From: an uncultured delta proteobacterium
Lineage (GTDB): Bacteria; Desulfobacterota; Binatia; DP-6
Length of the DNA: 64,000 nt
Direction: 5' to 3'
Assembly (NCBI GenBank): GCA_963815115.1
Contig: CAWFFN010000009.1
Location: forward strand, 96,001 to 160,000
Below the pieces are notes generated by a model, which had not been told where the DNA came from, did not search any database, and was given only the letters and a program-made list of their open reading frames with translations. A program made the translations under genes and the position numbers. This document shows, one piece after another, positions 1 through 58,723 of the stretch (position 1 is its first letter; each line of letters starts with the position of its first letter).

Positions 1-146
1 CTGCCTCTGCGGGCCCCGGCGGCGCCCGTGAGGATCGCGCGCTGGCGCTCGATGACCGCCACGAACGCGTCGCCGAGCGATCCGAGCAGGCGCGTGGACC
101 CCTCCACGTCGGTGAAGAGCAGCGTCACGATGCGCGTGTCCTGCAT
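1..146 (-). CDS. 5' end of cyclase-STAND-TPR paralog copy A (continues off the left edge)
   Basis: Reads MQDTRIVTLLFTDVEGSTRLLGSLGDAFVAVIERQRAILTGAAGARRG, nearly identical to the N-termini starting at 4511 and 10531. Confidence 0.9.
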   Translation of the reverse strand, partial: MQDTRIVTLLFTDVEGSTRLLGSLGDAFVAVIERQRAILTGAAGARRG

Positions 147-168
147 CTGGTGCGCGCGGGCGCCGCAA

Positions 169-202
169 GAGGTAGACCACACCATTGCCGGCGCCATCAA
201 GC
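169..202 (-). promoter_or_regulatory. Conserved upstream box of STAND copy A (putative promoter)
   Basis: Minus strand GCTTGATGGCGCCGGCAATGGTGTGGTCTACCTC; recurs at 4534-4567 and 10551-10584; contains a TTGATG -35-like hexamer. Confidence 0.55.
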
Positions 203-315
203 ATCTCGGTGTCGCGTCTCCTCGGCGGGTGATCTGCCGCAGCTCCGCCGTCCGTCCGATGAAGGGCGTGTGGCGCCGACCCGCTGCGCCAGGTTCCCAT
301 CGCCAGGCGAGCTGC

Positions 316-660
316 CTAAACGAATTCCACGCGATTCGCCATCTCGTCTGGGGTTGCCAGCTCCGCGTACAGCGCGAGCCTTCGGATACACTCGCCGAGA
401 CGGAAGCGGTGCAGATCGACGAAGAGCACGCCGGAGTGGTTCAAGCCACGGCGGCTGTGCTCTGCAGCCAATTCGATCAAGTGATGATCGTGCGTGAAGA
501 GGACGGCCCCGAGCGTCTCGGCATGCGCTAGATGCTCGGCGTCGGTCGCGCCGAGCTTCCCCTCTTCGGCCGCGGTCCGAGCGTCTATGCCGCGCCGCCT
601 GAGGCCCTCCGCCACACGAACATCGACGTTCTCATCCAGGTAGATCCGCAAGCCGGCCAA
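316..660 (-). CDS. DUF5615 PIN-like toxin (VapC45-like)
   Basis: LRIYLDENV...GATDAEHL...LFTHDHHL PIN-like motifs; overlaps the DUF433 gene. Confidence 0.85.
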   Translation of the reverse strand: MAGLRIYLDENVDVRVAEGLRRRGIDARTAAEEGKLGATDAEHLAHAETLGAVLFTHDHHLIELAAEHSRRGLNHSGVLFVDLHRFRLGECIRRLALYAELATPDEMANRVEFV

Positions 661-973
661 GCTTCCCCTCCAGCACCGACGACGACCGCCTCCGCTGCCG
701 ACTGGCCTGCCGTACTGCCCTTCTCCACTCCCGATCGAGAACCGCCTTGTTGTCGTAGTAGTGCGACAGCGCCGCGTGAATTTGTGCGAGCGTGAGATGT
801 GGGAGGGCGCTCGCGATCTCCTCGGGGCTCATGCCAAGCAGCTCGTATCGCACGGCCACGTCCATGACCCGCACGCCACTGCCTTCGATGATCGGCGCAC
901 CACCGCGGTTGCCCGGATCGCGGACGATCCGAACCCCCCTCTGCGCCTCGCCCCGTGCTCGCGACTTCGCCAT
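632..973 (-). CDS. DUF433 antitoxin (VapB45-like)
   Basis: IVRDPGNRGGAPIIEGSGVRVMDV...SPEEIASALPHLTLAQIHAALSHYYDN signature. Confidence 0.9.
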   Translation of the reverse strand: MAKSRARGEAQRGVRIVRDPGNRGGAPIIEGSGVRVMDVAVRYELLGMSPEEIASALPHLTLAQIHAALSHYYDNKAVLDREWRRAVRQASRQRRRSSSVLEGKLGRLADLPG

Positions 974-1103
974 TCGCAGCCTACCTGATCCGAAGGCTAC
1001 CACTCTTTCGGACCCCGGCGAAAACCGTACGCCGTGAGGTCAACCGCAGGTTCGGCGACCCCTCGAGCTCCGATTCGAGCCGACCCCGAGACGACCGGGA
1101 CGC

Positions 1104-4100
1104 TCAAAGCTGCCAGGTGACCGGTCGCTCCGGGGTATACGAGCAGAAGACGCCGGTGCGGAGCCCCTTCTCCAGGTGCAGGCCGAGCGCGGGGTGCTCG
1201 GCCCTGATGCGCTCGAGGCTGCGCCGGATCTGGTTCGTGACCGCCTTGCGCCACCGCTCGGCCGGGTCGCCCGCCGTCCGCGGCCGGCCGCCGAGCCCGT
1301 AGGCGGCCGACAGCTCCCGGGTGATCAGGTCGATCTCCTCGCGTGCCCGGGCCGCCCGGCCGAGGTCCCCGCCGGCGGTCGCCTCTGCGAGCTCCTCGCG
1401 CAGGTCGTCGAGGCGCCGCTTGTACTCGGCGCGTGCGCGGGGATCGAGCACGGTCCCGAGGTCACCCTCCGCCCCCGAACGCGGCGCGGCCTCCGCGTCG
1501 TCGGCTGCGCCCAGCGCCACCAGGTCGCCAACGTGGACCTCCGCGCCGGGGGCCGCGAGCAGGCGCGCGATGTAGTGGAGGCCCTTGGTGTCCCGCAGGC
1601 GGAGGGTCCGGCCGGCGTACGCCAGCGTCCAGAACTCGCCCTCGGGGAAAAATATCCCCGCGTCGTCGGAAGGCGTTGGCGCCGGCGCAGGCGGCGCTTC
1701 TCCTGCGGCTTCGCTGCCGCCGCCCGCTGACGTAACAGCCAGCGCCAGCTCCTCATCGAGGACCCGCAGGGCCAGGTCGGCAGCCCGCTCGAGCGACAGG
1801 CTCTGCCCGGCGATGAGGTGTTCGTCGAACCCAGCGTCCACCACAGAGGCGAGCGGTGTGAGGCCGCAGCCTGACACCACCTGGCCAATGAGCGGGCGCC
1901 ACGGCAGCACGTGTTCGTGCGTGCGAGGGAGCCGCAGGTACACGGCCTCCAGGGCTCCCAACAACGTCGCTACCTCGCGAGCACGCCCTCGGTGGTCGAG
2001 GACATGCGCGGCCAGCTCGACGGCGAGAGTCATCCGCTCGCCCGATCCGCTGTCGCGCGCCAGAAGGAGTGCCTCGCGCAGCGGCCCGAGCGCCCGAGCG
2101 TCGTCTCTGCTCTCGAGCGCGAGGTGAGCCCTCATCGTGAGGATCAGAGCACGCTGCAAGCGGTCGCCCGTTTGCTCGTAGGCGGCGGCGGCTTCCCCGA
2201 ACAGGCGCTCCGCGTCTGTGGGCTTCCCCCGCCTTGCCGCCAGCAGCGCCAGCAGCCGCCGCGACTCGGCGACGACTTGGAGCACCCCCGATCTGGTGCC
2301 GACCTGGAGCGCCTCGGTGGCTCGACTCGCCGCCCCATCCAGATCGCCGGCCTTGAATTTCTCCTCCGCGAGAAAGCTGAGCACCCAGCCGATGCCGGCG
2401 GGCTCGTCGATCTCGCGGAAGATACGCAAGGCGTCCTCGAACCAGGCGGCAGGCGGCCGCGCATCGACATCGATGACCCAGGCGGCACGTCCCATGACGT
2501 GCAAGGCCCAGCCCTCCAACTCGCGTGCACCGACCGCCCTGGAGATGGCGAGCGCCTCCCGCAGGTGCACGAGCGCCTGGTCATAGTCGAGCGCACTCTC
2601 TGCCAGCATCCCCGCCTCCAACAGCGCCCCTGCCCGGATCAGCTCGGGTGCTCCGGGGGCAGCCTCGAGCGCACGCACGGCCCACGAGTAGGCGTCCGGC
2701 TGGCCCGTCGTGAACCACGAGTAGCCGAGCGCGGCGGCGATGCGGAGCGCGGCCTCGGCATCGACGCCGGCCAGCGCGCTCTCCATCGCCTGGCGGACGT
2801 TGTCCTGCTCGTCGCGGAGCCGCGCGCTCCAACGGCGCTGCTCGCGCATGAAACCGCTCCCGGCCTCCACCGCCAGCGCAACGACCCACTCGAGGTGCCG
2901 CCGCACGACCCGGTCGCGCTCGCCGGCCTCGCGCAGCCGTTCGGCCGCGTACTGGCGGACCGGCTCGAGCATCCGCAGACGCGGCTCGGCGCGGTCGTGG
3001 TCGATCGCGACCAGCGACCTGCTCGCCAGGCGCTCGACCGCGTCGGCCACCGCGGCGCGCTCCACGCCGTCCCCATAGGCGACCTGCTCGGCAGCGTCGA
3101 GCGTGAAGCCACCCGCGAAGACCGAGAGCCGCCGGAAGACGATCTGCTCGTCGGGGGCGAGCAGCTGATGGCTCCAGTCGAGGGTGGCCCGCATCGTCTG
3201 CTGGCGATCGGGACGGCTGCGCCCGCCGTGGGTGAGCAGCTCCAGCTGCTCCCCGAGGCGGGCGGCCACCTGCTCCGGGCTGAGCGTGCGCAGCCGTGCG
3301 GCGGCCAGCTCGATGGCGAGCGGAAGCCCCGCGAGCTCCGCGCAGATCCTGGCCAGCGCTGCGGCGTTGCCGTCGGTGAGCCGGAAGCCCGGCCGCACGT
3401 CACCGCCACGCTCGATCAGGAGCCGGACGGCACCGTATTCGGCCAGCCGGTCGAGCGACTCCAGCGCATCCGGATCGGGCCGGTCGAGCGGCGGGACGGG
3501 TCGCTCGACCTCCCCGGGCAGGCGCAGCGGCTCCCGGCTGGTCGCCAGCACGTGCAGTTGGGCGCACGCCAGCAGCAGCTCGCTCACGAGAGCGGCCACC
3601 GCGGCGACGACGTGCTCGCAGTTGTCGAGTACGAGGAGGAGGTCGCGTTCGGCCAGCGAGGCGCACAGGAACTCGCTCGCCGACCTGCCGGCGGTGGGCT
3701 CGCGCATGCCGAGCGCCCCGAGCACGGCCTCGGGCACCAGCGCGTCGGTGCGGAGGCCCGCCAGCTCGACCAGGCACACGCCGTCGTGATGCTGATCCTC
3801 GACGCGCCTCACGGCCTCCAGCGCGAGACGCGTCTTGCCCGAGCCCCCGGCGCCCGTGAGCGTGACGAGCCGTCGGGACGCGAGGAGATCAACCAGCTCA
3901 CGCAGCTCCTGCTCGCGCCCCACGAACGAGGTCGTCGGCGCCGGCAGGTGGCTCACGCCGTTCGTCGCGGTGTTCAGGGCCGGGAACGACCTCAGGATAC
4001 CCTCGGCGACGGCCTGGTGGAGACGAACCGGCCGGACGATGTCGCGCAACCGATGCGTTCCCAGGTCGAGCAGCGAGATGTCCGGCGCAAGCTGCGCGAT

Positions 4101-4511
4101 GAGACCGACCGCCGCTTCCGAGACGACGATCTGCCCCCCGTGCGTGACAGCGAGGATCCGAGACGCCTGATGCAGGGCCATCCCGAACAGCTCGTCGCCC
4201 ACCTCGGCGACCTCGCCAGCGTGGACCGCCATCCGGATCCGGACGGACGTCCCGCCCGGCCAGGGCTCTGCCGCCAGCCTGCGCTGGGCCTCGACGGCTG
4301 CTGTCAGCGCGTCACCGGCCGAACCGAAGACGAACGCGCAGCCGTCGCCGCCGGTGGGATATCCGCTGCCCCTGCGGGCCCCGGCGGCGCCCGTGAGGAT
4401 CGCGCGCTGGCGCTCGATCACACCCACGAAGGCATCGCCGAGCGACCCGAGGAGCCGCGTGGAGGCCTCCACGTCGGTGAAGAGCAGCGTCACGATGCGC
4501 GTGTCCTGCAT
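1104..4511 (-). CDS. Class III nucleotide cyclase / STAND (NB-ARC-like) ATPase / TPR / C-terminal putative DNA-binding domain protein, copy B (intact, ~1135 aa)
   Basis: TLLFTDVE..ST and GDG cyclase motifs; Walker A GAGGSGKT; Walker B LLVLDNCEH; GLPLAIELAAAR; TPR-like helices; C-terminal GEFWTLAYAG..KGLHYIARLL..RKAVT..IRR..GVFCSY domain. Confidence 0.9.
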   Translation of the reverse strand: MQDTRIVTLLFTDVEASTRLLGSLGDAFVGVIERQRAILTGAAGARRGSGYPTGGDGCAFVFGSAGDALTAAVEAQRRLAAEPWPGGTSVRIRMAVHAGEVAEVGDELFGMALHQASRILAVTHGGQIVVSEAAVGLIAQLAPDISLLDLGTHRLRDIVRPVRLHQAVAEGILRSFPALNTATNGVSHLPAPTTSFVGREQELRELVDLLASRRLVTLTGAGGSGKTRLALEAVRRVEDQHHDGVCLVELAGLRTDALVPEAVLGALGMREPTAGRSASEFLCASLAERDLLLVLDNCEHVVAAVAALVSELLLACAQLHVLATSREPLRLPGEVERPVPPLDRPDPDALESLDRLAEYGAVRLLIERGGDVRPGFRLTDGNAAALARICAELAGLPLAIELAAARLRTLSPEQVAARLGEQLELLTHGGRSRPDRQQTMRATLDWSHQLLAPDEQIVFRRLSVFAGGFTLDAAEQVAYGDGVERAAVADAVERLASRSLVAIDHDRAEPRLRMLEPVRQYAAERLREAGERDRVVRRHLEWVVALAVEAGSGFMREQRRWSARLRDEQDNVRQAMESALAGVDAEAALRIAAALGYSWFTTGQPDAYSWAVRALEAAPGAPELIRAGALLEAGMLAESALDYDQALVHLREALAISRAVGARELEGWALHVMGRAAWVIDVDARPPAAWFEDALRIFREIDEPAGIGWVLSFLAEEKFKAGDLDGAASRATEALQVGTRSGVLQVVAESRRLLALLAARRGKPTDAERLFGEAAAAYEQTGDRLQRALILTMRAHLALESRDDARALGPLREALLLARDSGSGERMTLAVELAAHVLDHRGRAREVATLLGALEAVYLRLPRTHEHVLPWRPLIGQVVSGCGLTPLASVVDAGFDEHLIAGQSLSLERAADLALRVLDEELALAVTSAGGGSEAAGEAPPAPAPTPSDDAGIFFPEGEFWTLAYAGRTLRLRDTKGLHYIARLLAAPGAEVHVGDLVALGAADDAEAAPRSGAEGDLGTVLDPRARAEYKRRLDDLREELAEATAGGDLGRAARAREEIDLITRELSAAYGLGGRPRTAGDPAERWRKAVTNQIRRSLERIRAEHPALGLHLEKGLRTGVFCSYTPERPVTWQL

Positions 4512-4533
4512 CTGGTGCGCGCGGGCGCCGCAG

Positions 4534-4567
4534 GAGGTAGACCACATCTTCTCCGGCGCCATCAAGC
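4534..4567 (-). promoter_or_regulatory. Conserved upstream box of STAND copy B
   Basis: Same 34-bp box as 169-202 with a few substitutions; homology between copies ends here. Confidence 0.55.
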
Positions 4568-4681
4568 GTCGCCGTCGACTCGGCGAGAGCGAAGCGCGGG
4601 TCGGCGCCGCGGTGTCAGTGGAAGGATTCGCTTCGGTGGGACGCACGCGTGCCTGGTCTTGCTTGCTGGCCCAGCAAGACG

Positions 4682-4700
4682 TATGGCACGAGGAGCCATA
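4682..4700. promoter_or_regulatory. Inverted repeat over the RBS/start of the DUF6516 TA operon (putative operator)
   Basis: TATGGC-N7-GCCATA, with a CTTGCTGG-C-CCAGCAAG inverted repeat just upstream. Confidence 0.45.
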
Positions 4701-5000
4701 TGCCGAAGGCCACGCAGGTCTTCCACGAGAAGATCCGGACGGCTGATGGCGTGGTCGTGGAGTTCAAGGTCTGGCGAGTGACCAGGTCGGTGCACTACCC
4801 GGAAGGGTTCCGTTACTCCTTCTTCGCGATCCGCGACAGCGTCGTTCTCGTCGGCTACGACAATCACAGCCCGAAGGGGCACCACCGGCACGGTCAGGGG
4901 CAAGCAAGAGCGGTACGAGTTCGAGGGACTCGAGAAGCTGCGAGCGGACTTCACCAGGGATCTCGAGAGAGCCCGCATGACACGTACAAACGGAGAGTGA
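4700..5000 (+). CDS. DUF6516 (TumE-like) toxin with a 1-nt insertion near 4892
   Basis: YPEGFRYSFF..GYDNHSPKGHHRH; removing one G restores VRGKQERYEFEGLEKLRADF..TGA at 4998-5000. Confidence 0.8.
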
Positions 5001-5002
5001 CC

Positions 5003-5374
5003 ATGGCGCTGAAGACCATTCGAGTGCGGATCAAGTCCGTCGAGCAGGCGCTCGATGATGCGATCGGAGCGATTCGCGCGATCCAGTCGAAGAAGCGGGT
5101 CGCGAAGCGGCGCGGCGAGTACTTCGAGAGCCTCGAGGCAATACGCGCCGCGCTGACGGAGAAGCGGCTGGCTCTCGTGCGTTTGGTGCGCGAGCGCAAA
5201 CCCGCGTCGGTCGCCGAGCTGGCGCGCCTGGCGAGGCGCGACTTCAAGTCCGTCTACCGGGACGTGGAAGCGTTGCGCGGCCTAGGGCTCATCAGGACCG
5301 GTGCGACGAGACGCGGCGTCTCGAGTCCCCTGCGAAGCGATGCCACCGAGATTGTTCTCAGAATCGCGGTGTGA
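5003..5374 (+). CDS. HVO_A0114-like HTH antitoxin (TumA-like)
   Basis: FESLEAIRAALTEKRLALV..PASVAELARLARRDFKSVYRDVEALRGLGLI winged HTH; directly follows the DUF6516 gene. Confidence 0.85.
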   Translation: MALKTIRVRIKSVEQALDDAIGAIRAIQSKKRVAKRRGEYFESLEAIRAALTEKRLALVRLVRERKPASVAELARLARRDFKSVYRDVEALRGLGLIRTGATRRGVSSPLRSDATEIVLRIAV

Positions 5375-5376
5375 AC

Positions 5377-7264
5377 TCAGAGCCGCCAGGTGACTGGCCG
5401 CTCCGGGGTATACGAGCAGAAGACGCCGGTGCGGAGCCCCTTCTCGAGGTGCAGGCCGAGCGCGGGGTGCTCCGCCCGGATGCGCTCGAGGCTGCGCCGG
5501 ATCTGGTTCGTGACCGCCTTGCGCCACCGCTCGGCCGGGTCGCCCACCGTCCGTGGCCGGCCGCCGAGGCCGTAGGCCGCCGATAGCTCCCTGGTGATCA
5601 CCTCGATCTCGTCGCGTGCCCCGGCCGCCCGAACGAGGTCCCCGCCGGCGGTCGCCTCTACGAGCTCGTTCTGCAGGTCGTCCAGCCGCCGCTTGTACTC
5701 GGCGCGCGCACGCGGATCGAGCACGGTCCCGAGGTCACCCTGCGCGACAGACCGTGGCGTGTCCTCCGCGCCGTCGGCGGCGCCCGCACCGAGCGCCACG
5801 AGGTCACCGACGTGGACCTCCGCGCCAGGGTCGGCGAGTAGGCGCGCGATGTAGTGCAGCCCCTTCGTGTCCCGCAGGCGGAAGGTCTTGCCCGCGTACG
5901 CCAGCGTCCAGTACTCGCCCTCGCGGCAAAAGATACCCGCGTCGCCGGAAGGCGTTTCCGCCGGCGCCGCCGGCGCCTCTCCTGCTGCTTCGCTGCCGCC
6001 CGCCGGCTTGGTCGCCAGCGCCAGTTCCTCGTCGAGGACGCGCAGCGCCAGGTCAGCGGCCCGCTCGAGCGAGAGGCTCCGCCCGGCGACGCGGTGCTCG
6101 TCGAACCCCGCGGACACCACCGACGCGAGCGCTTCGAAGCCAGTGCCAGATACCGACTGGGTGACGCCTGCCCGCCACGGGAGCGACCGCATCCATTCTA
6201 TCCTGCGAGGGAGCCGCAGGTTGACCGCCTCCACGGCCCCCACCAACGTCGCCACTTCACGTGCACGCCCGCGGTGGTCGAAGACATGCGCGGTCAGCTC
6301 GACGGCGTAAACCATTCGCTCGCCCGACCCGCTGTCGCGGGCAAGGCGGAGCGCCTGACGCAGCGGCCCGAGCGCCCGGGCGTCGTCCCCGCAATTGAAC
6401 GCGACGTGAGCCGTCATGGTGAGGATCAGCGCAAGCTGCCAGCGGTTGCCCGCCTCCTCGTGTGCGGCGGCGGCTTCCGCGAGCAGTCGTTCCGCGTCGG
6501 CGTGCTGCCCCCGTTCTTCCGCCACCGCCGCAAGCATCCGCCGCGACTCGGCCACGACCTGGAGGAGCCCCGACCTGGTGCCGAGATCGAACGCCTCGGT
6601 GGCGCGACTCGCCGCCCCCTCCAGATCTCCGTCCTTCCATTGCTCCTCCGCCAGACAGCCGAGTATCGAGCCGATGCCGGCGGGCTCATTGATCTCGCGG
6701 AAGATGCGCAAGGCGTCCTCGAACCAGGCAGCGGCCGGCCGCGCATCGACATCGATGGCCCCGGCGGCACGTCCCATGGCCATCAGCACCCACGCCTCTC
6801 CGCGGCGGCCGCCGACCCGCCGGAAGAGCTCGAGCGCCTCCCGGAGGTGCACCAGCGCGCAATTATAGTCGAGTGCGTTCTCCGCCAGGAGCCCCGCCCC
6901 GTACACCGCCCGTGCTCGCAGCCAGTCGGGTGCACCGGTGGCCGCGTCGAGGGCGCGCACGACCCACGCGCGCGCGTCCGGCTGCCCCATCGAGAACCAC
7001 GGGTGCCCGAGCGCGGCGGCGATGCGCAGCGCGGCCTCGGGATCGACCCCGGCGAGCGCGCTCTCGATCGCCTGGCGGACGTTTTCCTGCTCGTCGCGGA
7101 GCCGCGCGCTCCAACGGCGCTGCTCGCGCATGAACCCACTCCCGGCCTTCACCGCGAACGAGACCACCCACTCCAGATGTCGCCGCACGACCCGGTCGCG
7201 CTCGCCGGCCTCGCGCAGCCGTTCGGCCGCGTACTGGCGGACCGGCTCGAGCATGCGCAGCCGC
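5377..7264 (-). pseudogene. 3' part (TPR + C-terminal domain) of STAND copy C, separated by the IS3 insertion; 625-aa ORF from ATG 7254
   Basis: Colinear with the C-terminal half of copy B. Confidence 0.88.
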
Positions 7265-7339
7265 CCCCCTGTGCCAATGAACGTGAGAGAGGAGGCGATC
7301 CGAATTTAGTGTACGAGGGGACGGAGGAAGGCGAGCGAG

Positions 7340-7819
7340 GTGGGAGTGAAGGTGAGGGATGGCGGGGGATCAGGAAGCGCGCCCGGAACGGAAGGAGCCC
7401 GTAGGGCGACTGAAGTTGCGGGCGCGCCGGCGCCGACGGGCCGCAAGGATCCGGAGGTTCCGGCGAAGGCGCAGCGGCGCCGGTTCACGGCCGAGTACAA
7501 GCGACAGCTCCTGGCCGAGGCCGACGGGTGTCGCGAGCCGGGGGAGATCGGGGCGCTGCTGCGACGCGAGGGGCTCTACACGTCGCATCTGAGCGTGTGG
7601 CGTCAGCAGCGCGAGGCGGGGGCGTTGGTCGGGCTGGCGGGGCACGCGCGCGGGCGCAAGGCGGTGGCGCATCCGTTGGCGAAGCGACTCGCCGGGATGG
7701 AGCGGGAGAACGCGCGGCTGCGGGAGGAGCTGCGCAAGGCGCACGTGATCATCGACGTTCAAAAAAAAGTCTCACAGTTGCTGGGGCTGCCGCCGAGCGA
7801 CGAGGAGGTCGGGAGCTGA
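7340..7819 (+). CDS. IS3 transposase OrfA (HTH)
   Basis: RRRFTAEYKRQLLAEAD..GALLRREGLYTSHLSVWR plus coiled coil; A8G slippery site at 7761-7769. Confidence 0.88.
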   Translation: MGVKVRDGGGSGSAPGTEGARRATEVAGAPAPTGRKDPEVPAKAQRRRFTAEYKRQLLAEADGCREPGEIGALLRREGLYTSHLSVWRQQREAGALVGLAGHARGRKAVAHPLAKRLAGMERENARLREELRKAHVIIDVQKKVSQLLGLPPSDEEVGS

Positions 7820-8961
7820 TGGCGACGGCGCAGACGTTGGCCGACGCCGTGGGGGTCCAGGCCGCCTGTGGGGCGTTGGGTCTGGCCCCGGCAAGTTTTT
7901 ACCGGTGGCGGCGACCATGTTCGGAGACGGCGGTTCGATCGCGGCCGCCGCTGGCATTGTCCGAAATCGAGGAGGCTGCCGTTCTCGACGTGCTGCATTC
8001 GGAACGGTTCATCGACCAGGCTCCGGCGGAGGTGTACGCGACGTTGCTCGAGGAGGGAACCTACCACTGCTCGCTGCGGACGATGTACCGGATTCTCGAT
8101 CGGCACGGGGAAGTCCGCGAGCGGCGCAACCAGCTGCGCCACCCGGTGGCGACGCGGCCCGAGCTCCTGGCGACGGGACCGAACCAGGTGTGGTCGTGGG
8201 ACATCACGAAGCTCAAGGGGCCGGCGAAGTGGACGTACTTCTACCTCTACGTGCTGCTCGACATCTTCAGCCGCTACGTGGTGGGGTGGCTCTTGGCGGA
8301 TCGAGAGTCGGCGACGTTGGCGCGCCGCTTGATCAAGGAGAGCTGCGAGAAGGAGGGGATCGCGGAGGCGGTCCTGACGCTGCACTCCGACCGCGGGCCG
8401 GCGATGACGTCGAAGACGGTGGGCCAGCTGTTGGCCGACCTGTCGATCACGCGGAGCCTGACGCGACCGTACACCAGCAACGACAATCCGTTTTCGGAGT
8501 CGCAGTTTCGCACGTTGAAGTCGCGTCCGGAGTTTCCCGAGCGATTCGGGTCGCAGCAGGACGCCCTGGGATTCCTGCGGCGATTCTTCCCCTGGTACAA
8601 CGAAGAGCATCGGCACAGCGGGATCGGGTTCCTGACGCCGGTGAGCGTGCACAGCGGGACGGCCCTGGCGATCGTGGCACGACGGGGGGAAACGCTCGCG
8701 GCGGCATTCGCGGCTCATCCCGAACGCTTCAAGGGGAAGACACCGCGGGTGCAACAGCCCCCGACGGAAGTGTGGATCAATCCGCCGGCCCTCGACCGCA
8801 ATGGCGTTCCGAGCCCGCGATCGCGAAGAAACGTCGCGCTCAGAGCCCCGCAGACGCCCGCAACGGAGCCGGTCCAAGGTCCAGGTACCCCCCAAGTCTC
8901 GATGCTCGTGGCTGCGGACGACCTCCTGCTCGCGGAGCTCGACGTCGCGGCGGGACAGTAA
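7819..8961 (+). CDS. IS3 transposase OrfB (rve DDE)
   Basis: PNQVWSWDITKL, LHSDRG, NDNPFSESQFRTLK, WYNEEHRHSGI; -1 frame relative to orfA, TGATG overlap. Confidence 0.93.
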   Translation: MATAQTLADAVGVQAACGALGLAPASFYRWRRPCSETAVRSRPPLALSEIEEAAVLDVLHSERFIDQAPAEVYATLLEEGTYHCSLRTMYRILDRHGEVRERRNQLRHPVATRPELLATGPNQVWSWDITKLKGPAKWTYFYLYVLLDIFSRYVVGWLLADRESATLARRLIKESCEKEGIAEAVLTLHSDRGPAMTSKTVGQLLADLSITRSLTRPYTSNDNPFSESQFRTLKSRPEFPERFGSQQDALGFLRRFFPWYNEEHRHSGIGFLTPVSVHSGTALAIVARRGETLAAAFAAHPERFKGKTPRVQQPPTEVWINPPALDRNGVPSPRSRRNVALRAPQTPATEPVQGPGTPQVSMLVAADDLLLAELDVAAGQ

Positions 8962-9000
8962 TTTCACCATGCCCCTCTCTCATCTCATTGACACGCGCCG

Positions 9001-10531
9001 GCGGCTCGGCGCGGTCGTGGTCGACCGCGACGAGTGACTTGCTGGCCAGGCGCTCGACCGCGTCGGCCACCCGGTCGCGATCGACGCCGTCCCCGTCGGC
9101 GACCTGCTCGGCAGCGTCGAGCGTGAAGCCACCCGCGAAGACGGAGAGCCGCCGGAAGACGATCTGCTCGTCGGGGGCGAGCAGCTGATGGCTCCAGTCG
9201 AGGGTGGCCCGTATCGTCTGCTGGCGATCGGGGCGGCTGCGCCCCCCGTGGGTGAGGAGATCGAGCTGCTCCTCGAGGCGGGCAGCCACCTGCTCCGGGC
9301 TGAGCGTGCGCAGCCGTGCCGCGGCCAGCTCGATGGCGAGCGGAAGCCCCGCGAGCTCCGAGCAGATCCTGGCCAGCGCTGCGGCATTGCCGTCGGTGAG
9401 CCGGAAGCCAGGCCGCACGTCGGCGCCGCGCTCCACCAGGAGCCGGACGGCGTCGTAGTCGGCGAGCCGCTCGAGCGACTCCAGCGCCTCCGGATCGGGC
9501 CGGTCGAGGGGCGGGACCTCTCGCTCGACCTCCCCCGGCAGGCGCAGCGGCTCCCGGCTGGTCGCCAGCACCTGCAGTTGGGCGCACGCCGGGAGCAGCT
9601 CGCTCACGAGTGCGGCCACCGCGGCGACGACGTGCTCGCAATTGTCCAGCACGAGGAGGAGGTCGCGGTCGGCCAGCGCGGCGCACAGGAACTCGCTCGC
9701 CGACCTGCCGGCCGTCGGCTCGCGCATGCCGAGCGCCCCGAGCACCGCTTCGGGCACCAGCGCGCCCGTGCCGAGGCCCGCCAGCTCGACTAGGCACACG
9801 CCGTCGCGATGCTGATCCTCGACGCGCCTCACGGCCTCCAGCCCCAGGCGCGTCTTGCCGGAACCCCCGGCGCCCGTGAGCGTGACGAGCCGCCGGGACG
9901 CGAGGAGGTCGACCAGCTCGCGCAGCTCCTGCTCTCGCCCCACGAACGAGGTCGTCGGCGCCGGCAGATGGCTCGCGCTGCTCGTCGCGGTGTCCAGGGG
10001 CGGGAAGGACGTCGGGATGCCCGCGGCGACGGCCTGGTGGAGACGAACCGGCCGGACGATGTCGCGCAACCGATGCGCTCCCAGCTCGAGCAGCGAGATG
10101 TCCGGCGCAGGCTGCGCGATGAGCCCGACCGCCACTTCCGAGACGACGATCTGCCCTCCGTGCGTGGCGGCGAGAATCCGAGAAGCCTGATGAAGAGCCA
10201 TACCAAACAGCTCGTCACCCACCTCGGCGACCTCGCCGGCGTGAATCGCCATCCGGACCCGGACGGAGGAACCGCCCGGCCAGGGCTCTGCTGCCAGGGC
10301 GCGCTGGGCCTCCACGGCCGCTGCCACCGCGTCGCCCGCCGAACCGAAGATGAACGCGCAGCCGTCGCCGCCGGTGGGATAGCCGCTGCCTCTGCGGGCA
10401 CCGGCGGCGCCCGTGAGGATCGCGCGCTGGCGCTCGATCACACCCACGAAGGCATCGCCGAGCGCCCCGAGCAGCCGCGTGGACCCCTCCACGTCGGTGA
10501 AGAGCAGCGTCACGATGCGCGCGTCCTGCAT
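9001..10531 (-). pseudogene. 5' part (cyclase + STAND ATPase) of STAND copy C
   Basis: Highly similar to the N-terminal half of copy B; the ORF runs into the IS and stops at 8840. Confidence 0.9.
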
Positions 10532-10550
10532 CTGGTGGCGGTCGCCGCCT

Positions 10551-10584
10551 GAGGTAGACCACACCATTGCCGGCGCCATCAAGC
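10551..10584 (-). promoter_or_regulatory. Conserved upstream box of STAND copy C
   Basis: Identical to 169-202. Confidence 0.55.
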
Positions 10585-10734
10585 ATTCTCGGTCTCCCTC
10601 TCGGTAGGTGGACCTCGGGCTTCGAGACGATGCCGTGGAGGTGAAGGCGAGGAGGAGGTCCGCCCCCGCGGTCGTGACGCTCGAGGTCTGCGGGAGGTGG
10701 CGCGCCGAGTCCGGTGCGTCGTGGGTCTATCGAG

Positions 10735-10757
10735 ACTGGACAGTTTTTCTGTCCAGT
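10735..10757. promoter_or_regulatory. Operator palindrome of the Phd-VapC operon
   Basis: Perfect ACTGGACAG-TTTTT-CTGTCCAGT just upstream of a TAAGAAT -10-like element and GGAG RBS. Confidence 0.7.
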
Positions 10758-10774
10758 GGTAAGAATCTGGAGCC

Positions 10775-10996
10775 ATGACGAAGACCATCCCGGCGGCCAA
10801 GTTCAAGGAGCAGTGCCTCGCGTTGCTCGACCGCGTCGGCCCGGAGGGCATCGTCATCACGAAGCACGGGCGTCCGGTAGCCAAATTGATCCCGCTCGGC
10901 GGCGACTCGGCGAGCCTGATCGGCAGCCTCAAAGGCAAGCTCAAGATCAAGGGCGACATCCTCTCGACCGGTATCCGCTGGGATGCTGAATCTTGA
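10775..10996 (+). CDS. Phd/YefM-family antitoxin
   Basis: TIPAAKFKEQCLALLDRV..IVITKHGRPVAKLIP. Confidence 0.92.
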   Translation: MTKTIPAAKFKEQCLALLDRVGPEGIVITKHGRPVAKLIPLGGDSASLIGSLKGKLKIKGDILSTGIRWDAES

Positions 10997-11345
10997 CACG
11001 CACATCCTGCTCCACGCCGTCGCCGGCAGCTTGAAGTCCCGCGAGCGCCAGCTGCTGCAGGCGCAGCCCTGGAGCATCTCGGCCATCGTCCTGTGGGAGA
11101 TCGCGAAGCTGGCCGAGCTCGGTCGCATCGAGGTGGATCTGCACAGCCCCGAGCTCACCCGCGTCATCTCCCGCGTGCAGCTGTGGCCTCTCACGCTCGA
11201 CGTGTGCCGGGCGATCGACATGCTCGACTTCGACGGCGACCCGGCCGACGAGATCATCGCCGCGACCAGCGTGGTGGAGCGCGTGCCGCTCGTGACGCGC
11301 GACGGGAAGATTCGGCGCTCGAAGGTCGTCCCGCTAGCGCACTGA
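10983..11345 (+). CDS. vapC: VapC PIN-domain toxin
   Basis: LDTHILL, SAIVLWEI, GDPADEII, LVTRD; overlaps the antitoxin. Confidence 0.92.
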   Translation: MLNLDTHILLHAVAGSLKSRERQLLQAQPWSISAIVLWEIAKLAELGRIEVDLHSPELTRVISRVQLWPLTLDVCRAIDMLDFDGDPADEIIAATSVVERVPLVTRDGKIRRSKVVPLAH

Positions 11346-11459
11346 GGATTCGGTACCCGCGCAAGCCCGCGTCGGTCACCGAGTTGCCGCGCCTGGCGCC
11401 GCACTTCGTCGCGCGTCGGAGATTGCGACACCGCGGACCGCCGGGTACACCCGACCCTC

Positions 11460-12356: not shown

Positions 12357-12548
12357 GCGGCCGGCGCCGCACGGCTGGCACTCGCGCGTCCGCACCTCCT
12401 GTCGGCAGGGCACTGGCGCCTCGAAGGGAGCCTTTCAAACCGCTCAGCTCTCGGTCGGCTGATGCTGGTAGGCACTATGAAGTCAATGCCGGTAGCCTAG
12501 CACCTGGCGACGATGGATTCTGATTGACGCTCCACACCGGGCGGTCGT

Positions 12549-14375
12549 ATGCAGGCGCGGGGGACCAGCCTGGGAAGAATGCGCGCAACGGGCGACGCTG
12601 GGGCCCGCCTCGTCGGCGCGGGCGTGCTTCTCGTCGCCATGACTGCCGCGGCGCAGCCGGTGCCGCTCACCCCGGGCTCGACGCTGGTGAGCGCCGCGGA
12701 GCAAGGGAACCAGCCCGCGGTCGCCGCCTCGCCCGACGGGAGCTTCGTCGTCGCATGGTCGCGATACGGCGTACTGCTCGGCGGTCTCGCCGCCCGCAAG
12801 CTGGACGCGGCAGGCGGCGTGCTGGGGCCCATGTCGATCGTGGCGGATCCTTCCCCGTTTTCTAGCCGAGTCGACGAATCGGCCCTGGCGAGCGATCCGG
12901 CGGGCGGCGCTGCCCTGGTGGTGTGGGCGTCGGACGAGTTCAACCCCCGGATCCTGGCGCGCCGGCTCGGAGAAACCGCGACGGCGATCGCGCTGAGTGA
13001 CGACACATCGGAATCTTCGCATCCTGCCGCCGCAGCGGTGGGCCGCGACCGCTTCCTGGTCGTCTGGCAGCGCCAGGACCTGCTGGACCAGGGCAGCGGG
13101 CCCGCCGTCTTCGGGCGTTGGGTGGACGGCGGCGGCCGTCCTTTCGCACCGCAGTTCAGGTTGAGCCCGGAAGAGCGGTTCGTCCCGCACATCCGTCCCG
13201 ACGTCGCGAGCGCGGGCGGCGTGGCGCTGGTCGCCTGGGAGCGTCTCGCCGTGCCGAGCAGCCAGCTGCTCGCCCGTCTCGTGCGACCGGACGGACCGCC
13301 GGGCGGTGTCGACGTGGAGCTGGTCTCCGCCGGTGCCGAGGCGATGCCCGGCGCGGCTGTTGCCGTCGCCGGCATGCCGACGGGCTTCCTTGCCGTCTGG
13401 TCCGAGGAGGACCGCGACGGACCCTTCATCTCGGACCGCAGGCTCGTAGCCCGGACGGTGTCACCCGACGGCGCACTCGGTCCGGTCGTCCGGATCGCTG
13501 CGCTCGAGAACGGGTTCTCCGAGAACCTCGACGTCGCCGCGGATGCTGCCGGCATGGGAGTGGCGGTGTGGCAGGATCTCGACGGCGGCGACGAGATCCT
13601 GCGTGCTGCAAGCATCGACACGAGCACGGGAGCCGTCAGCACCGCCGTCGACGTCGATCCGTCCGCGCAGTTCGCGCCCGCCATCGCTGCAGGATCTCCC
13701 GGACGGTTTCTGATCGCATGGCCCAGCGGGCCGGTGCGCGCGCGGGTGCTGACCTTGTGCGGGAACGCCATCCCCGAACCGGGAGAAGAGTGCGACGACG
13801 GCAACCGCCGCGACGGCGACTGCTGCGCCGCCGCCTGTCGGCTCGAGCCGGTGCCGGGCACCTGCTGGCGGCTCGCCGGGTCGATCCTCGCCCGGCTCTC
13901 CGCCACCGTCACGCAAGCCGGGCAGACCTACGCGTGCGCGGCGCGCTGCCGCGGCGCGAGCGAGGCGACGCTGATCCTGCTCGACGACGGCACGTACCGC
14001 TGGCCGCAAGGAAGCGTCGCGTGTACGAGCGGAGAGACCCGCACGCTCCCCGACGAGGTCGGCCGGCGCCGGGGCCGCGGTGTCCGGGCGCGACTGAGCC
14101 CCGCCAACCTGGCGGAGATCCGGAGCGCCACGCGCGCGTGCACGGGCGCGATGCTCGGCGGCCAGCAGACGACGCTGCGGCTCGGCGGAGATACGCTCCG
14201 TGGCACACAGAGCTCGCACCTCCGCCGCGCCGGCCACCCGTCGATCCGGGTGCAGGCGATGACACGCTTCGCGGGCGTGCCTCTCGGCTCTGGGACACGA
14301 CCCGCCCCGCCCGCGTTGCCGCAGACGATCCCGTCCTGCGCCAGCGAGCTCACGTTCCGCTGCCGGCCCCGCTGA
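12549..14375 (+). CDS. Secreted protein with beta-repeat region and one DUF4215-type Cys-rich repeat (start uncertain)
   Basis: Signal-like N-terminus; repeated PAVA...FxVxW units; CGNAIPEPGEECDDGNRRDGDCCAAAC. Confidence 0.7.
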   Translation: MQARGTSLGRMRATGDAGARLVGAGVLLVAMTAAAQPVPLTPGSTLVSAAEQGNQPAVAASPDGSFVVAWSRYGVLLGGLAARKLDAAGGVLGPMSIVADPSPFSSRVDESALASDPAGGAALVVWASDEFNPRILARRLGETATAIALSDDTSESSHPAAAAVGRDRFLVVWQRQDLLDQGSGPAVFGRWVDGGGRPFAPQFRLSPEERFVPHIRPDVASAGGVALVAWERLAVPSSQLLARLVRPDGPPGGVDVELVSAGAEAMPGAAVAVAGMPTGFLAVWSEEDRDGPFISDRRLVARTVSPDGALGPVVRIAALENGFSENLDVAADAAGMGVAVWQDLDGGDEILRAASIDTSTGAVSTAVDVDPSAQFAPAIAAGSPGRFLIAWPSGPVRARVLTLCGNAIPEPGEECDDGNRRDGDCCAAACRLEPVPGTCWRLAGSILARLSATVTQAGQTYACAARCRGASEATLILLDDGTYRWPQGSVACTSGETRTLPDEVGRRRGRGVRARLSPANLAEIRSATRACTGAMLGGQQTTLRLGGDTLRGTQSSHLRRAGHPSIRVQAMTRFAGVPLGSGTRPAPPALPQTIPSCASELTFRCRPR

Positions 14376-57644: not shown

Positions 57645-57747
57645 CCACAGAAGCTCGGCAAGCGGCGAGCCGAATTCCCTGGCCGTGGGGCGCGCGATGC
57701 GCTGCGTCGGATGACCTTCGTGCGCTGGTGTGCTAGGCACCACCGCG

Positions 57748-58723
57748 ATGCGGGTGGCGGCGGGCTGGCGGCAGGACGCGGACGTCTCCCTGTACCAGGG
57801 AGACACGCTCGATCTGCTGCGCGAGCTGCCGGACGAGTCGGCCCAGCTCGTGATCACGTCGCCTCCCTACAACCTCGCCAAGGCGTACGAGCGCGGCCGG
57901 CGCCTGGCGCTCGACGAGTACCTGGCCGCACAGGCGCAGGTCATCGAGCAGTGCGTTCGCATCCTGCGTCGCGGTGGCAGCATCTGCTGGCAGGTCGGCA
58001 ACCACGTGACCGCGGACGAGATCGTTCCGCTCGACGTGATGCTCTACCCGCTCTTCAAGCGGCACCCCGATCTCCTGCTGCGCAACCGCGTGATCTGGCA
58101 CTTCGAGCACGGCCTGCACTGCACCAGGCGCCTCTCCGGCCGGTACGAGGTGATCCTCTGGTTCACCAGAGGCCCGGAGTACCGCTTCGACGTCGACCCG
58201 ATTCGGGTGCCCCAGAAGTATCCCGGCAAGCGCGCGTGGAAGGGTCCGACGCGCCGGCGAGTACACCGGCAACCCGCGCGGGAAGAATCCCGGCGACGTG
58301 TGGATCTTCCCCAACGTCAAGGCGAACCACGTCGAGAAGACCATCCACCCCTGCCAATTCCCCATCGAGCTGGTGGAGCGCTTCGTGCTCGCGACCACCG
58401 TTCCGGGCGATCTCGTGGTCGATCCCTACATGGGCGTCGGGACGACCGCCTGTGCCGCGGTGCTGAACGGCCGCCGCGCCGCCGGCGCGGAGATCGTCCC
58501 GCAGTACGTCGCGATCGCCCGCGAGCGGCTCGCGATGGCGGCGGCCGGACGTCTGGGAACGCGCCCCATGACACGGCCCGTTCACCAGCCGGATCCCCGC
58601 TCGGCACTGACGCGGCGTGACGAGTCCAGCGGTACGCGCAGCGGACGCATACGCCCGCGGCCCCGGGCGCAAGGGCTGCGGATCGTCGCGCGCGCCGCGG
58701 CCAGCGAGCCGCCGGCGGGCTGA
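57748..58723 (+). CDS. Beta-class N4/N6 DNA methyltransferase, M.BglII-like (frameshift near 58250)
   Basis: ITSPPYN, ICWQVGN, LRNRVIWHFEHGLH, KNPGDVW, HPCQFP, DPYMGVGTT. Confidence 0.88.

Follow-up and report, generated by a model that had tools for sequence, protein, structure and literature searches.

Alternation of STAND-type paralogs and toxin-antitoxin cassettes in an apparently decaying genomic island of one strain

We analyzed a 64,000-nucleotide stretch from an uncultured delta proteobacterium of the Binatia (lineage DP-6), referred to here as the window (contig CAWFFN010000009.1; C9:96001-160000 of genome G000, which comprises 6.89 Mb at 70% GC; negative positions lie to the left of the window). 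At its left end, paralogous genes predicted to encode a cyclase-homology domain, a STAND-type ATPase, and a TPR region (P1, P2, and P3, for copies 1, 2, and 3) alternate with three unrelated toxin-antitoxin (TA) pairs. The block appears to be a strain-specific island in decay, with selfish cassettes in turnover, rather than a new defense system. We consider the alternation to be a by-product of its history, that is, of an island, the duplication of a gene together with its TA, cassette turnover, the insertion of an insertion sequence (IS), and gene conversion, and we give this reading a probability of roughly 0.6.

Layout of the array and limits of the island

Searching the whole genome with P2 (tblastn) recovered three full-length copies and no more, each of them encoded on the minus strand: P1 at C9:92700-96146, P2 at C9:97107-100511, and P3 in two pieces at C9:104984-106531 and C9:101380-103263, which correspond to residues 1 to 516 and 511 to 1135 of P2, respectively. 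This bears out the three same-strand paralogs with first codons at window positions 146, 4511, and 10531 that had been reported in a first-pass annotation of the window. P1, of which positions 1 to 146 lie in the window, is open over its whole length (-3300 to 146, without the stop codon; 1149 codons) and is 87% identical to P2 in amino acid sequence (tblastn), with a possible alternative start 17 codons upstream, at about 197. It matched AAA_16, NB-ARC, TPR_12, and TPR_MalT in Pfam (on L001:14697-18440) and had no stops in frame. P2 (1104 to 4511, minus strand; 1107 to 4511 without the stop) is intact and encodes 1135 amino acids. The 3' part of P3 (5377 to 7264, minus strand; 628 codons) is 84 to 85% identical to P1 and P2, and its 5' part (9001 to 10531, minus strand; 510 codons) is 92% identical to them (blastn); both parts are open, with no in-frame stops in either. 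The array had also been described as continuing off the left edge, which is true of P1 itself, ending at -3303, but not of the array, as tblastn found no fourth copy and a Uma2 gene comes next. To the left of P1 lie this Uma2 gene, a small open reading frame (ORF), an NHL propeller gene, and another small ORF, which resembles the C-terminal domain of the paralogs, followed by ordinary enzymes.

Homology between the copies begins 3 nt past the stop codon and ends ∼60 to 85 nt upstream of the start (blastn); none of the spacer sequence thus belongs to the repeat. The spacers share nothing except one 40-bp stretch, tblastx comparisons between them returned high-GC noise only, and no inverted repeats of ≥10 nt were found in the three spacers.

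The three TA pairs occupy the P1/P2 junction, the P2/P3 junction, and the right flank, and Pfam confirmed that they belong to different families, as the first reading of the window had it. All six Pfam matches were above their cutoffs, and the gene layouts identify all three as predicted type II TA pairs. The P1/P2 junction holds a putative DUF433 antitoxin gene (632 to 973, minus strand; 113 amino acids; PF04255, E = 3.6e-13, 49.6 bits against a cutoff of 23.6), the end of which is overlapped by the gene of a putative PIN-like DUF5615 toxin (316 to 651, minus strand; 111 amino acids with a TTG start; PF18480, E = 9.4e-11, 42 bits against 23.8). This pair is codirectional with the paralogs; the other two are on the opposite strand. 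At the P2/P3 junction, a TumE (DUF6516) toxin gene (4700 to 5000, plus strand; Pfam TumE, E = 6.4e-9) is followed by a TumA-type antitoxin gene (5003 to 5374, plus strand; 123 amino acids; HVO_A0114/HTH_20, PF25212, E = 1.2e-17, or 6.2e-17 in the first scan), whose stop codon lies 2 bp from that of P3. Experiments have validated TumE-TumA as a TA family (Durairaj et al. 2023, PMC10584680). Our locus resembles this superfamily in having a DUF6516 toxin and then a helix-turn-helix (HTH) antitoxin, with Pfam matches above the cutoffs, and differs from it in that the toxin frame is interrupted. The right flank carries a Phd/VapC cassette (10731 to 11347, plus strand) in which phd (10775 to 10996; PhdYeFM, E = 1.8e-7) and vapC (10983 to 11345; PIN, E = 2.5e-9) overlap by 14 nt. 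This cassette includes a palindrome and a sigma-70-like promoter at 10737 to 10766, the only such promoter in the 11.6 kb scanned. G000 contains only two DUF433/DUF5615 loci and one TumE locus, and a term search of the literature did not find DUF433 and DUF5615 named together.

The array had been said to contain no other cargo, which does not hold: P3 is interrupted at 7265 to 9000 by an IS3-family element of 1,736 bp on the plus strand (rve, E = 4.4e-24; HTH_Tnp_1; NCBIfam transpos_IS3, 181.9 bits against 160). Approximately 2 bp of target sequence are repeated at its ends, and its terminal inverted repeats are imperfect. Three further copies elsewhere in G000 are 99.7% identical to it, which indicates that the insertion was recent.

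The array lies in an 18,556-bp island (C9:88867-107422, window positions -7133 to 11422, the right-hand 11.4 kb being positions 1 to 11422) that was found only in this genome among those compared. DNA searches with the flanks showed that the S15-peptidase and abhydrolase_3 genes are adjacent, with gaps of 18 to 168 bp, in all four same-genus genomes (G001 to G004). The limits were taken from an alignment to the empty site in G001, in which the 18,556 bp of G000 correspond to 17 bp; this alignment revealed no direct repeats of ≥9 nt at the island ends. No tRNA gene was found in the left 19 kb and no integrase family among the island ORFs. TA cassettes are known to guard sedentary chromosomal integrons against deletion, where the repeats are attC arrays. 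The island differs from such cassette arrays in that its ORFs include no integrase and no attC-like repeats were found in it.

Cassette turnover and decay within the array

In the history we favor, the unit that first duplicated would have been one gene with a divergently placed TumE/TumA pair, so that genes and TA pairs would have alternated from the outset. DUF433/DUF5615, with its own upstream region, would later have replaced TumE/TumA at the P1/P2 junction, and Phd/VapC, also with its own upstream region, would have replaced it at the right flank, leaving a TumA scar. The array would since have been decaying, with TumE frameshifted, P3 split by an active IS, gene conversion between P1 and P2, and diverging TPR regions; in a relative represented in soil sequencing run X7, the TumE/TumA cassette would have been eroded. 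The sequences themselves show the island, the IS insertion, the frameshift as assembled, the tract shared by P1 and P2, the other copy of the Phd/VapC cassette, and the scar; the order of these events, TumE/TumA as the ancestral occupant, and the selfish nature of the TA pairs, without a signaling link to the STAND proteins, are what we infer from the evidence below.

Between the vapC stop codon and the conserved abhydrolase gene lies a TumA-like scar (11359 to 11398, plus strand), 40 bp that are 90% identical to TumA codons at 5194 to 5233. A blastn comparison with the whole genome (E = 8.6e-7) gave no other match of more than 23 bp. A single 869-bp contig from X7 (depth, 11.4) joins sequence corresponding to window positions 3911 to 4567, 42 unrelated letters, and sequence corresponding to 5235 to 5404. 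Its left piece is the 5' end of a copy with 56 nt of upstream sequence, at ∼90% identity, and its right piece begins with the final 140 nt of TumA and, after 2 nt, passes into 28 nt of the 3' end of a copy; 667 bp are missing between them. The scar and the X7 contig fit one history and suggest that the original unit was the gene with TumE/TumA. We disregarded many short-sided contig joints linking paralogous positions as cross-mapping, and with them one joint from run X1 (78 to 1287) for which no side lengths were given. A search of metagenome contigs with TumA found one relative, at 46% identity, at the end of its contig, and no P-like gene was found beside any of nine TumE or TumA loci, taken from other genomes and one metagenome contig, most of which had flanks of only 1.5 kb.

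On sequence comparison, the TA cassettes are demonstrably mobile. The whole segment from the palindrome and promoter of Phd/VapC to 2 nt past the stop codon (10731 to 11347) recurs at G001:C3:10959-11574 with 88% identity, in a ∼6-kb stretch that holds at least four TA pairs, and the TumE/TumA cassette (4649 to 5375) was found in sediment run X2 at 95% identity with a different left neighbor. No DNA copies of the DUF433/DUF5615 or TumE/TumA spacer were found in five relatives beyond short stretches. The ∼6-kb cluster in G001 (L020:5079-10684) is composed of DUF2283, Phd/PIN, DUF433, MazE/PIN, MazE-like, and Phd/PIN genes.

As assembled, the TumE gene is frameshifted by 1 base in a G run at ∼4892 to 4899. 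Its Pfam match is confined to the first frame (profile positions 2 to 59 of 81); the toxin frame is broken after 'HHRHGQG' and, as assembled, runs on into TumA, and the remainder of the toxin ('KQERYEFEGLEKLRADF...') lies in the +1 frame. TumE homologs from other genomes are unbroken across the frame switch, and an 857-bp contig from X2, 95% identical, has one letter fewer at 4892.

P1 and P2 share a tract of 1,109 bp without one difference (3156 to 4264 on the minus strand in P2; -1209 to -101 in P1). Over codons 121 to 420, their rates of nonsynonymous (dN) and synonymous (dS) substitution are both 0, against a dS of 0.05 to 0.47 in all other windows of codons, and we read the tract as a recent gene conversion tract. 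Pairwise dN/dS among the copies was 0.14 to 0.31 for the cyclase domain, 0.23 to 0.26 for NB-ARC, and 0.22 to 0.30 for the C-terminal domain. The TPR region was the fastest-evolving part (0.50 to 0.57, with 60-codon windows reaching 0.92), and in it the copy from G001 is at least as close to P1, P2, and P3 as these are to one another. The TPR sensor part is thus diverging, and the N-terminal half is being homogenized. The G001 copy is the nearest homolog of the paralogs, with 85 to 87% nucleotide identity to each, and lies at another locus, in an insertion between genes that are neighbors in contig C5 of G000. With its roughly twelve 1-bp indels, between neighbor genes that are intact, it is a pseudogene. 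Upstream of it is a 130-amino-acid ORF with a subthreshold match to AbiEii (21.9 bits against 22.5).

Several observations weigh against this history. A remnant of TumE/TumA was not found in the P1/P2 spacer or to the left of P1, and the case for the ancestral unit is thus made by one scar and a single foreign contig. The 134 bp from the end of the P3 repeat to the Phd cassette (10597 to 10730) are unlike the region upstream of TumE. G001 and G005 each have a single site that matches 31 to 33 bp of this TumA segment at 88 to 90% identity, and the similarity of the scar could therefore stem in part from an HTH motif that is conserved in a genome of high GC content. The X7 sequence comes from another organism (∼90 to 93% identity) and is a Logan contig, possibly a chimera. 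Because the extra base in TumE falls within a G run, the frameshift may have arisen in assembly; run X1, which has 0.33 of the words and is the probable source, yielded only short identical contigs with no cover of 4698 to 5526, and hence none of the frameshift. Three different TA pairs at three of four junctions are improbable if they were inserted independently (P = 2.2e-3 at the local toxin rate), which leaves room for selection. Speaking for the history, on the other hand, are the TA-rich surroundings and the lack of a family-wide link to TA pairs, seen in the other loci with the C-terminal domain, in two further tandem pairs, and in the PADLOC comparison (all described below), and also in five distant orthologs (in G006, G010, G009, G016, and G002; amino acid identity of 40 to 45% across the cyclase and NB-ARC region), beside none of which a TA was found. 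This last result comes from a Pfam scan of 29 of the 84 flanking ORFs, picked by codon bias, so that small TA genes with low GC content at third codon positions could be missed; all matches among the ORFs scanned were to metabolic or housekeeping families.

An N6_N4 DNA methylase elsewhere in the window (57715 to 58723) is apparently frameshifted too, with profile positions 2 to 132 in one ORF and 132 to 220 in another. Genuine decay or a fault of the assembly could account for this second case, which bears on the trust to be placed in the TumE frameshift.

If the history we favor is true, a repeat unit containing a TA yields a gene-TA-gene-TA pattern by descent, and TA cassettes succeed one another at the same spot, leaving scars. 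The locus is then a caution against taking TA adjacency for functional coupling.

Alternative explanations of the alternation

The most durable alternative, unlikely in our estimate, is a plain triplication without TA followed by the separate landing of three unrelated cassettes in a TA hot spot. We counted 56 toxin genes in the 6.89 Mb of G000 (40 PIN, 5 ParE, 5 PemK, 3 HicA, 2 DUF5615, and 1 TumE), a lower bound on toxin density because only these six families were searched. The window holds 7 toxins (at 415, 4736, 10992, 26569, 48987, 57040, and 58993) against 0.52 expected, a 13-fold enrichment (P = 1.3e-6), as a hot spot would predict. Separate landing is also consistent with the clustering of TA cassettes elsewhere in the genus (G001:C3), with the self-contained form of each cassette checked, which comes with its own upstream region, and with the lack of any TumE/TumA trace in the P1/P2 spacer. 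It leaves unexplained, however, both the TumA scar beside VapC and the TumA tail between copy ends in X7. With toxins as dense as in the whole genome, the Poisson probability of three in 11.3 kb was 1.2e-4, and with the density found in the remainder of the window it was 0.057; for three of four junctions being filled, the corresponding values were 2.8e-6 and, even at local density, 2.2e-3. All of these figures are post hoc. The clustering is real, but with a TA within the original repeat unit it is explained and such chance figures are not needed. Two other tandem pairs in G000, moreover, gained no TA: a cyclase-AAA_16-TPR pair on C4 with a 115-bp gap and an AAA_16-TPR pair on C12 with no gap. 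Four of the window's toxins (26569, 48987, 57040, and 58993) lie outside the island, among housekeeping-type genes.

A rather more doubtful explanation, put forward in the first-pass annotation, is that the TA pairs have been kept as a lock: a crossover between the direct repeats deletes the intervening TA and kills or arrests the cell, and the unlike families bar rescue by another antitoxin. Its premise is sound. Bardaji et al. (2019, PMC6354349) showed that a TA guards repeat-flanked DNA on Pseudomonas syringae virulence plasmids, where TA inactivation exposed an 8.3-kb deletion between two copies of a miniature inverted-repeat transposable element (MITE). The plasmid case resembles ours in that a TA pair lies between recombinable direct repeats and loss of the interval removes the antitoxin gene; it differs in that our repeats are 3.4-kb paralogous chromosomal genes rather than MITE or IS copies and that one of our toxins is frameshifted. 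A penalty on deletion by a TA between repeats had thus already been shown on plasmids, and the earlier statement that no system with this architecture had been described needs to be narrowed; among the literature matches listed (titles and beginnings of abstracts), none described an array of STAND-cyclase-TPR genes with TA pairs.

At the P1/P2 junction such a lock is possible. The 1,109 identical bases indicate that P1 and P2 recombine, both copies are intact, and the DUF433/DUF5615 pair between them is apparently intact as well; the three TA families differ, and those at the two junctions are scarce in the genome, with only two DUF433/DUF5615 loci and one TumE locus. As the reason for the pattern, though, the lock fares poorly. 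The broken TumE frame probably leaves the P2/P3 junction unlocked, P3 is already dead through the IS, and the relative in X7 lacks TumE and most of TumA but has kept the flanking copy sequences. Cross-rescue is possible given the 40 PIN genes and several Phd-like genes in the genome, and the cassettes are demonstrably mobile. The arrangement, expected to recur in orthologous arrays, was not conserved in any relative searched, and no TA was found beside the five distant orthologs among the 29 flanking ORFs scanned. The tandem pairs on C4 and C12 are without TA too, but they are only ∼30% identical to P2 where tblastn aligns and therefore need no lock; they count against the idea that a TA goes with the family, not against the lock. 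Nor was TA enrichment beside the family borne out: 2 of 22 other loci with the C-terminal domain were within 3 kb of a toxin, compared with a random mean of 1.0 (P = 0.27). When genome contigs were searched with the N-terminal 600 amino acids, the yield was 9 loci, of which 8 had ≤42% identity, and enrichment could not be judged from so few.

It is thus physically plausible, by a known principle, that a deletion lock acts at P1/P2, and the evidence here does not establish that it has shaped the locus; any still-active TA would impose an incidental penalty on deletions between repeats. A selected ratchet, in which quickly diversifying STAND sensors are kept as a multicopy array because each junction is rearmed with a scarce or unique TA family as the old one decays, allowing gene conversion (as in the 1,109-bp tract) while blocking crossovers that collapse the array, seems to us very unlikely. 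The locus would also suit an experiment on deletion locks, with two 90 to 100% identical 3.4-kb direct repeats, one apparently intact TA between them, and an adjoining junction with an apparently broken toxin.

The remaining suggestion of the first-pass annotation, that each STAND protein senses through its TPR part and releases or activates the neighboring toxin, is highly improbable: adjacency is its sole direct support, the fast evolution of the TPR region (dN/dS of 0.50 to 0.57 against 0.14 to 0.31 elsewhere), as in immune sensors, and a Uma2 gene adjoining P1 that matches the PADLOC candidate PDC-S03 (E = 1.2e-11) are in keeping with it, and against it stand the mixed orientations (one pair codirectional, two on the opposite strand), the unrelated folds of toxins that have their own antitoxins and upstream regions (with a promoter and operator of its own in Phd/VapC), the occurrence of the Phd/VapC and TumE/TumA cassettes without a STAND gene, the lack of a conserved association or of any TA found beside the orthologs, the output-type (cyclase-like) domain that the paralogs already carry at their N termini, and the lack of a PADLOC-DB 2.0 system match for the STAND proteins, which gave only weak mad8 P-loop matches (E = 5e-5 to 6e-4) and one generic TPR match.

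Domains of the paralogs and neighboring genes

P2 comprises a cyclase-homology domain (approximately amino acids 1 to 180), a STAND P-loop/NB-ARC part (∼190 to 600), a TPR region (∼600 to 920), and an uncharacterized C-terminal domain (∼925 to 1135). In the 5' part of P3, NB-ARC matched with 24.9 bits against a cutoff of 23.5 over profile positions 2 to 245 of 248, and AAA_22 matched with 28 bits against 27; nSTAND1 and AAA_16 were slightly under their Pfam cutoffs. TPR_12 scored 36.3 bits against 30.1, and 48.4 bits on amino acids 755 to 1004, with TPR_MalT under its cutoff. From these matches, the proteins are predicted to contain a STAND-class P-loop nucleoside triphosphatase (NTPase) with helical modules, followed by a TPR repeat sensor.

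The N terminus is homologous to class III cyclases, with a match to Ma1120 (PDB 4wp8, E = 1.8e-12 over amino acids 7 to 134) and to the cyclase part of NCBIfam LipJ (E = 5e-11); Pfam Guanylate_cyc scored 14.5 bits, under its cutoff of 21.9. Catalysis in these enzymes depends on two metal-binding Asp residues, a substrate-binding Lys/Asp pair, and transition-state Asn and Arg residues. In the alignment to Ma1120 (window 4109 to 4511, P2 amino acids 1 to 134), both metal-binding Asp residues and the Arg are kept, and the Lys and Asn are replaced by Pro and Ala, respectively. Because of these two replacements, the predicted cyclase activity is uncertain, and the domain may be inactive or of unusual specificity.

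The C-terminal domain (∼200 amino acids; window 1107 to 1796, P2 amino acids 906 to 1135) has no Pfam family. It forms the end of more than 20 large ATPase/TPR proteins in G000, can also make up a small ORF by itself, and is frequent among relatives; in G000 it is found at ∼22 loci, among them L001:11051-11509 and L040:15389-16399. Eight aligned sequences share 44 invariant columns, and the look-alikes in the Protein Atlas are annotated as 'hypothetical protein' without a Pfam family. An AlphaFold2 model of the domain was weak (pLDDT, 64.2), and Foldseek comparison of this model with the PDB gave nothing at E ≤ 0.001; rows at E of ∼1 were OmpR/PhoB-type winged-helix proteins, which, given the weak model, are a lead only. 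From its position, a reasonable guess is that the domain would have a DNA-binding or other output role. A domain common to so many large ATPases of one genome is thereby brought to notice.

The mycobacterial proteins Rv0386, Rv1358, and Rv2488c are regulators that combine a cyclase-homology domain with a STAND/AAA ATPase and a LuxR domain (PMC3466318). Our paralogs are like Rv0386-type and MalT/LAL-type regulators in that a class III cyclase-homology domain at the N terminus precedes a STAND-type P-loop ATPase and helical repeats, and subthreshold matches to NCBIfam AfsR and Pfam TPR_MalT add a MalT/AfsR-type resemblance. They differ from the Rv0386 type in having the unnamed ∼200-amino-acid domain in place of LuxR: no Pfam match to a GerE/LuxR helix-turn-helix was found in P1, P2, or P3, and the ortholog in G010 (41% identity) ends in GerE/LuxR (E = 9.2e-13) at the position of the unnamed domain. 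With Avs/AVAST, bNACHT, and CARD-NLR systems, the array shares a STAND NTPase whose repeat sensor evolves fast, a variable island, and an adjoining defense-candidate nuclease gene. Unlike in those systems, the N-terminal domain here is cyclase-like and not a nuclease, protease, TIR, or similar domain.

The Uma2-family putative endonuclease gene (L001:13881-14474, window positions -4119 to -3526) lies directly downstream of P1, and copies with 75 to 77% nucleotide identity occur elsewhere in G003 and G004. A trio composed of one or more cyclase-STAND-TPR genes, an NHL-repeat propeller gene, and a small ORF that encodes the C-terminal domain is found twice in G000 (L001:11051-13628 and, on contig C4, L040:3156-16399), and its recurrence hints at a functional set. 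Beyond the island, a stretch of ∼90 bp at about 13746 to 13859, within an ORF (12528 to 14375) that has no Pfam match, had dozens of matches in G001 to G003 at 72 to 90% identity, often in tandem, and probably represents a peptide motif that recurs or else a small repeat element. The gene content of the window (AcrB, ExbB/ExbD, and similar) is typical of a Gram-negative cell.

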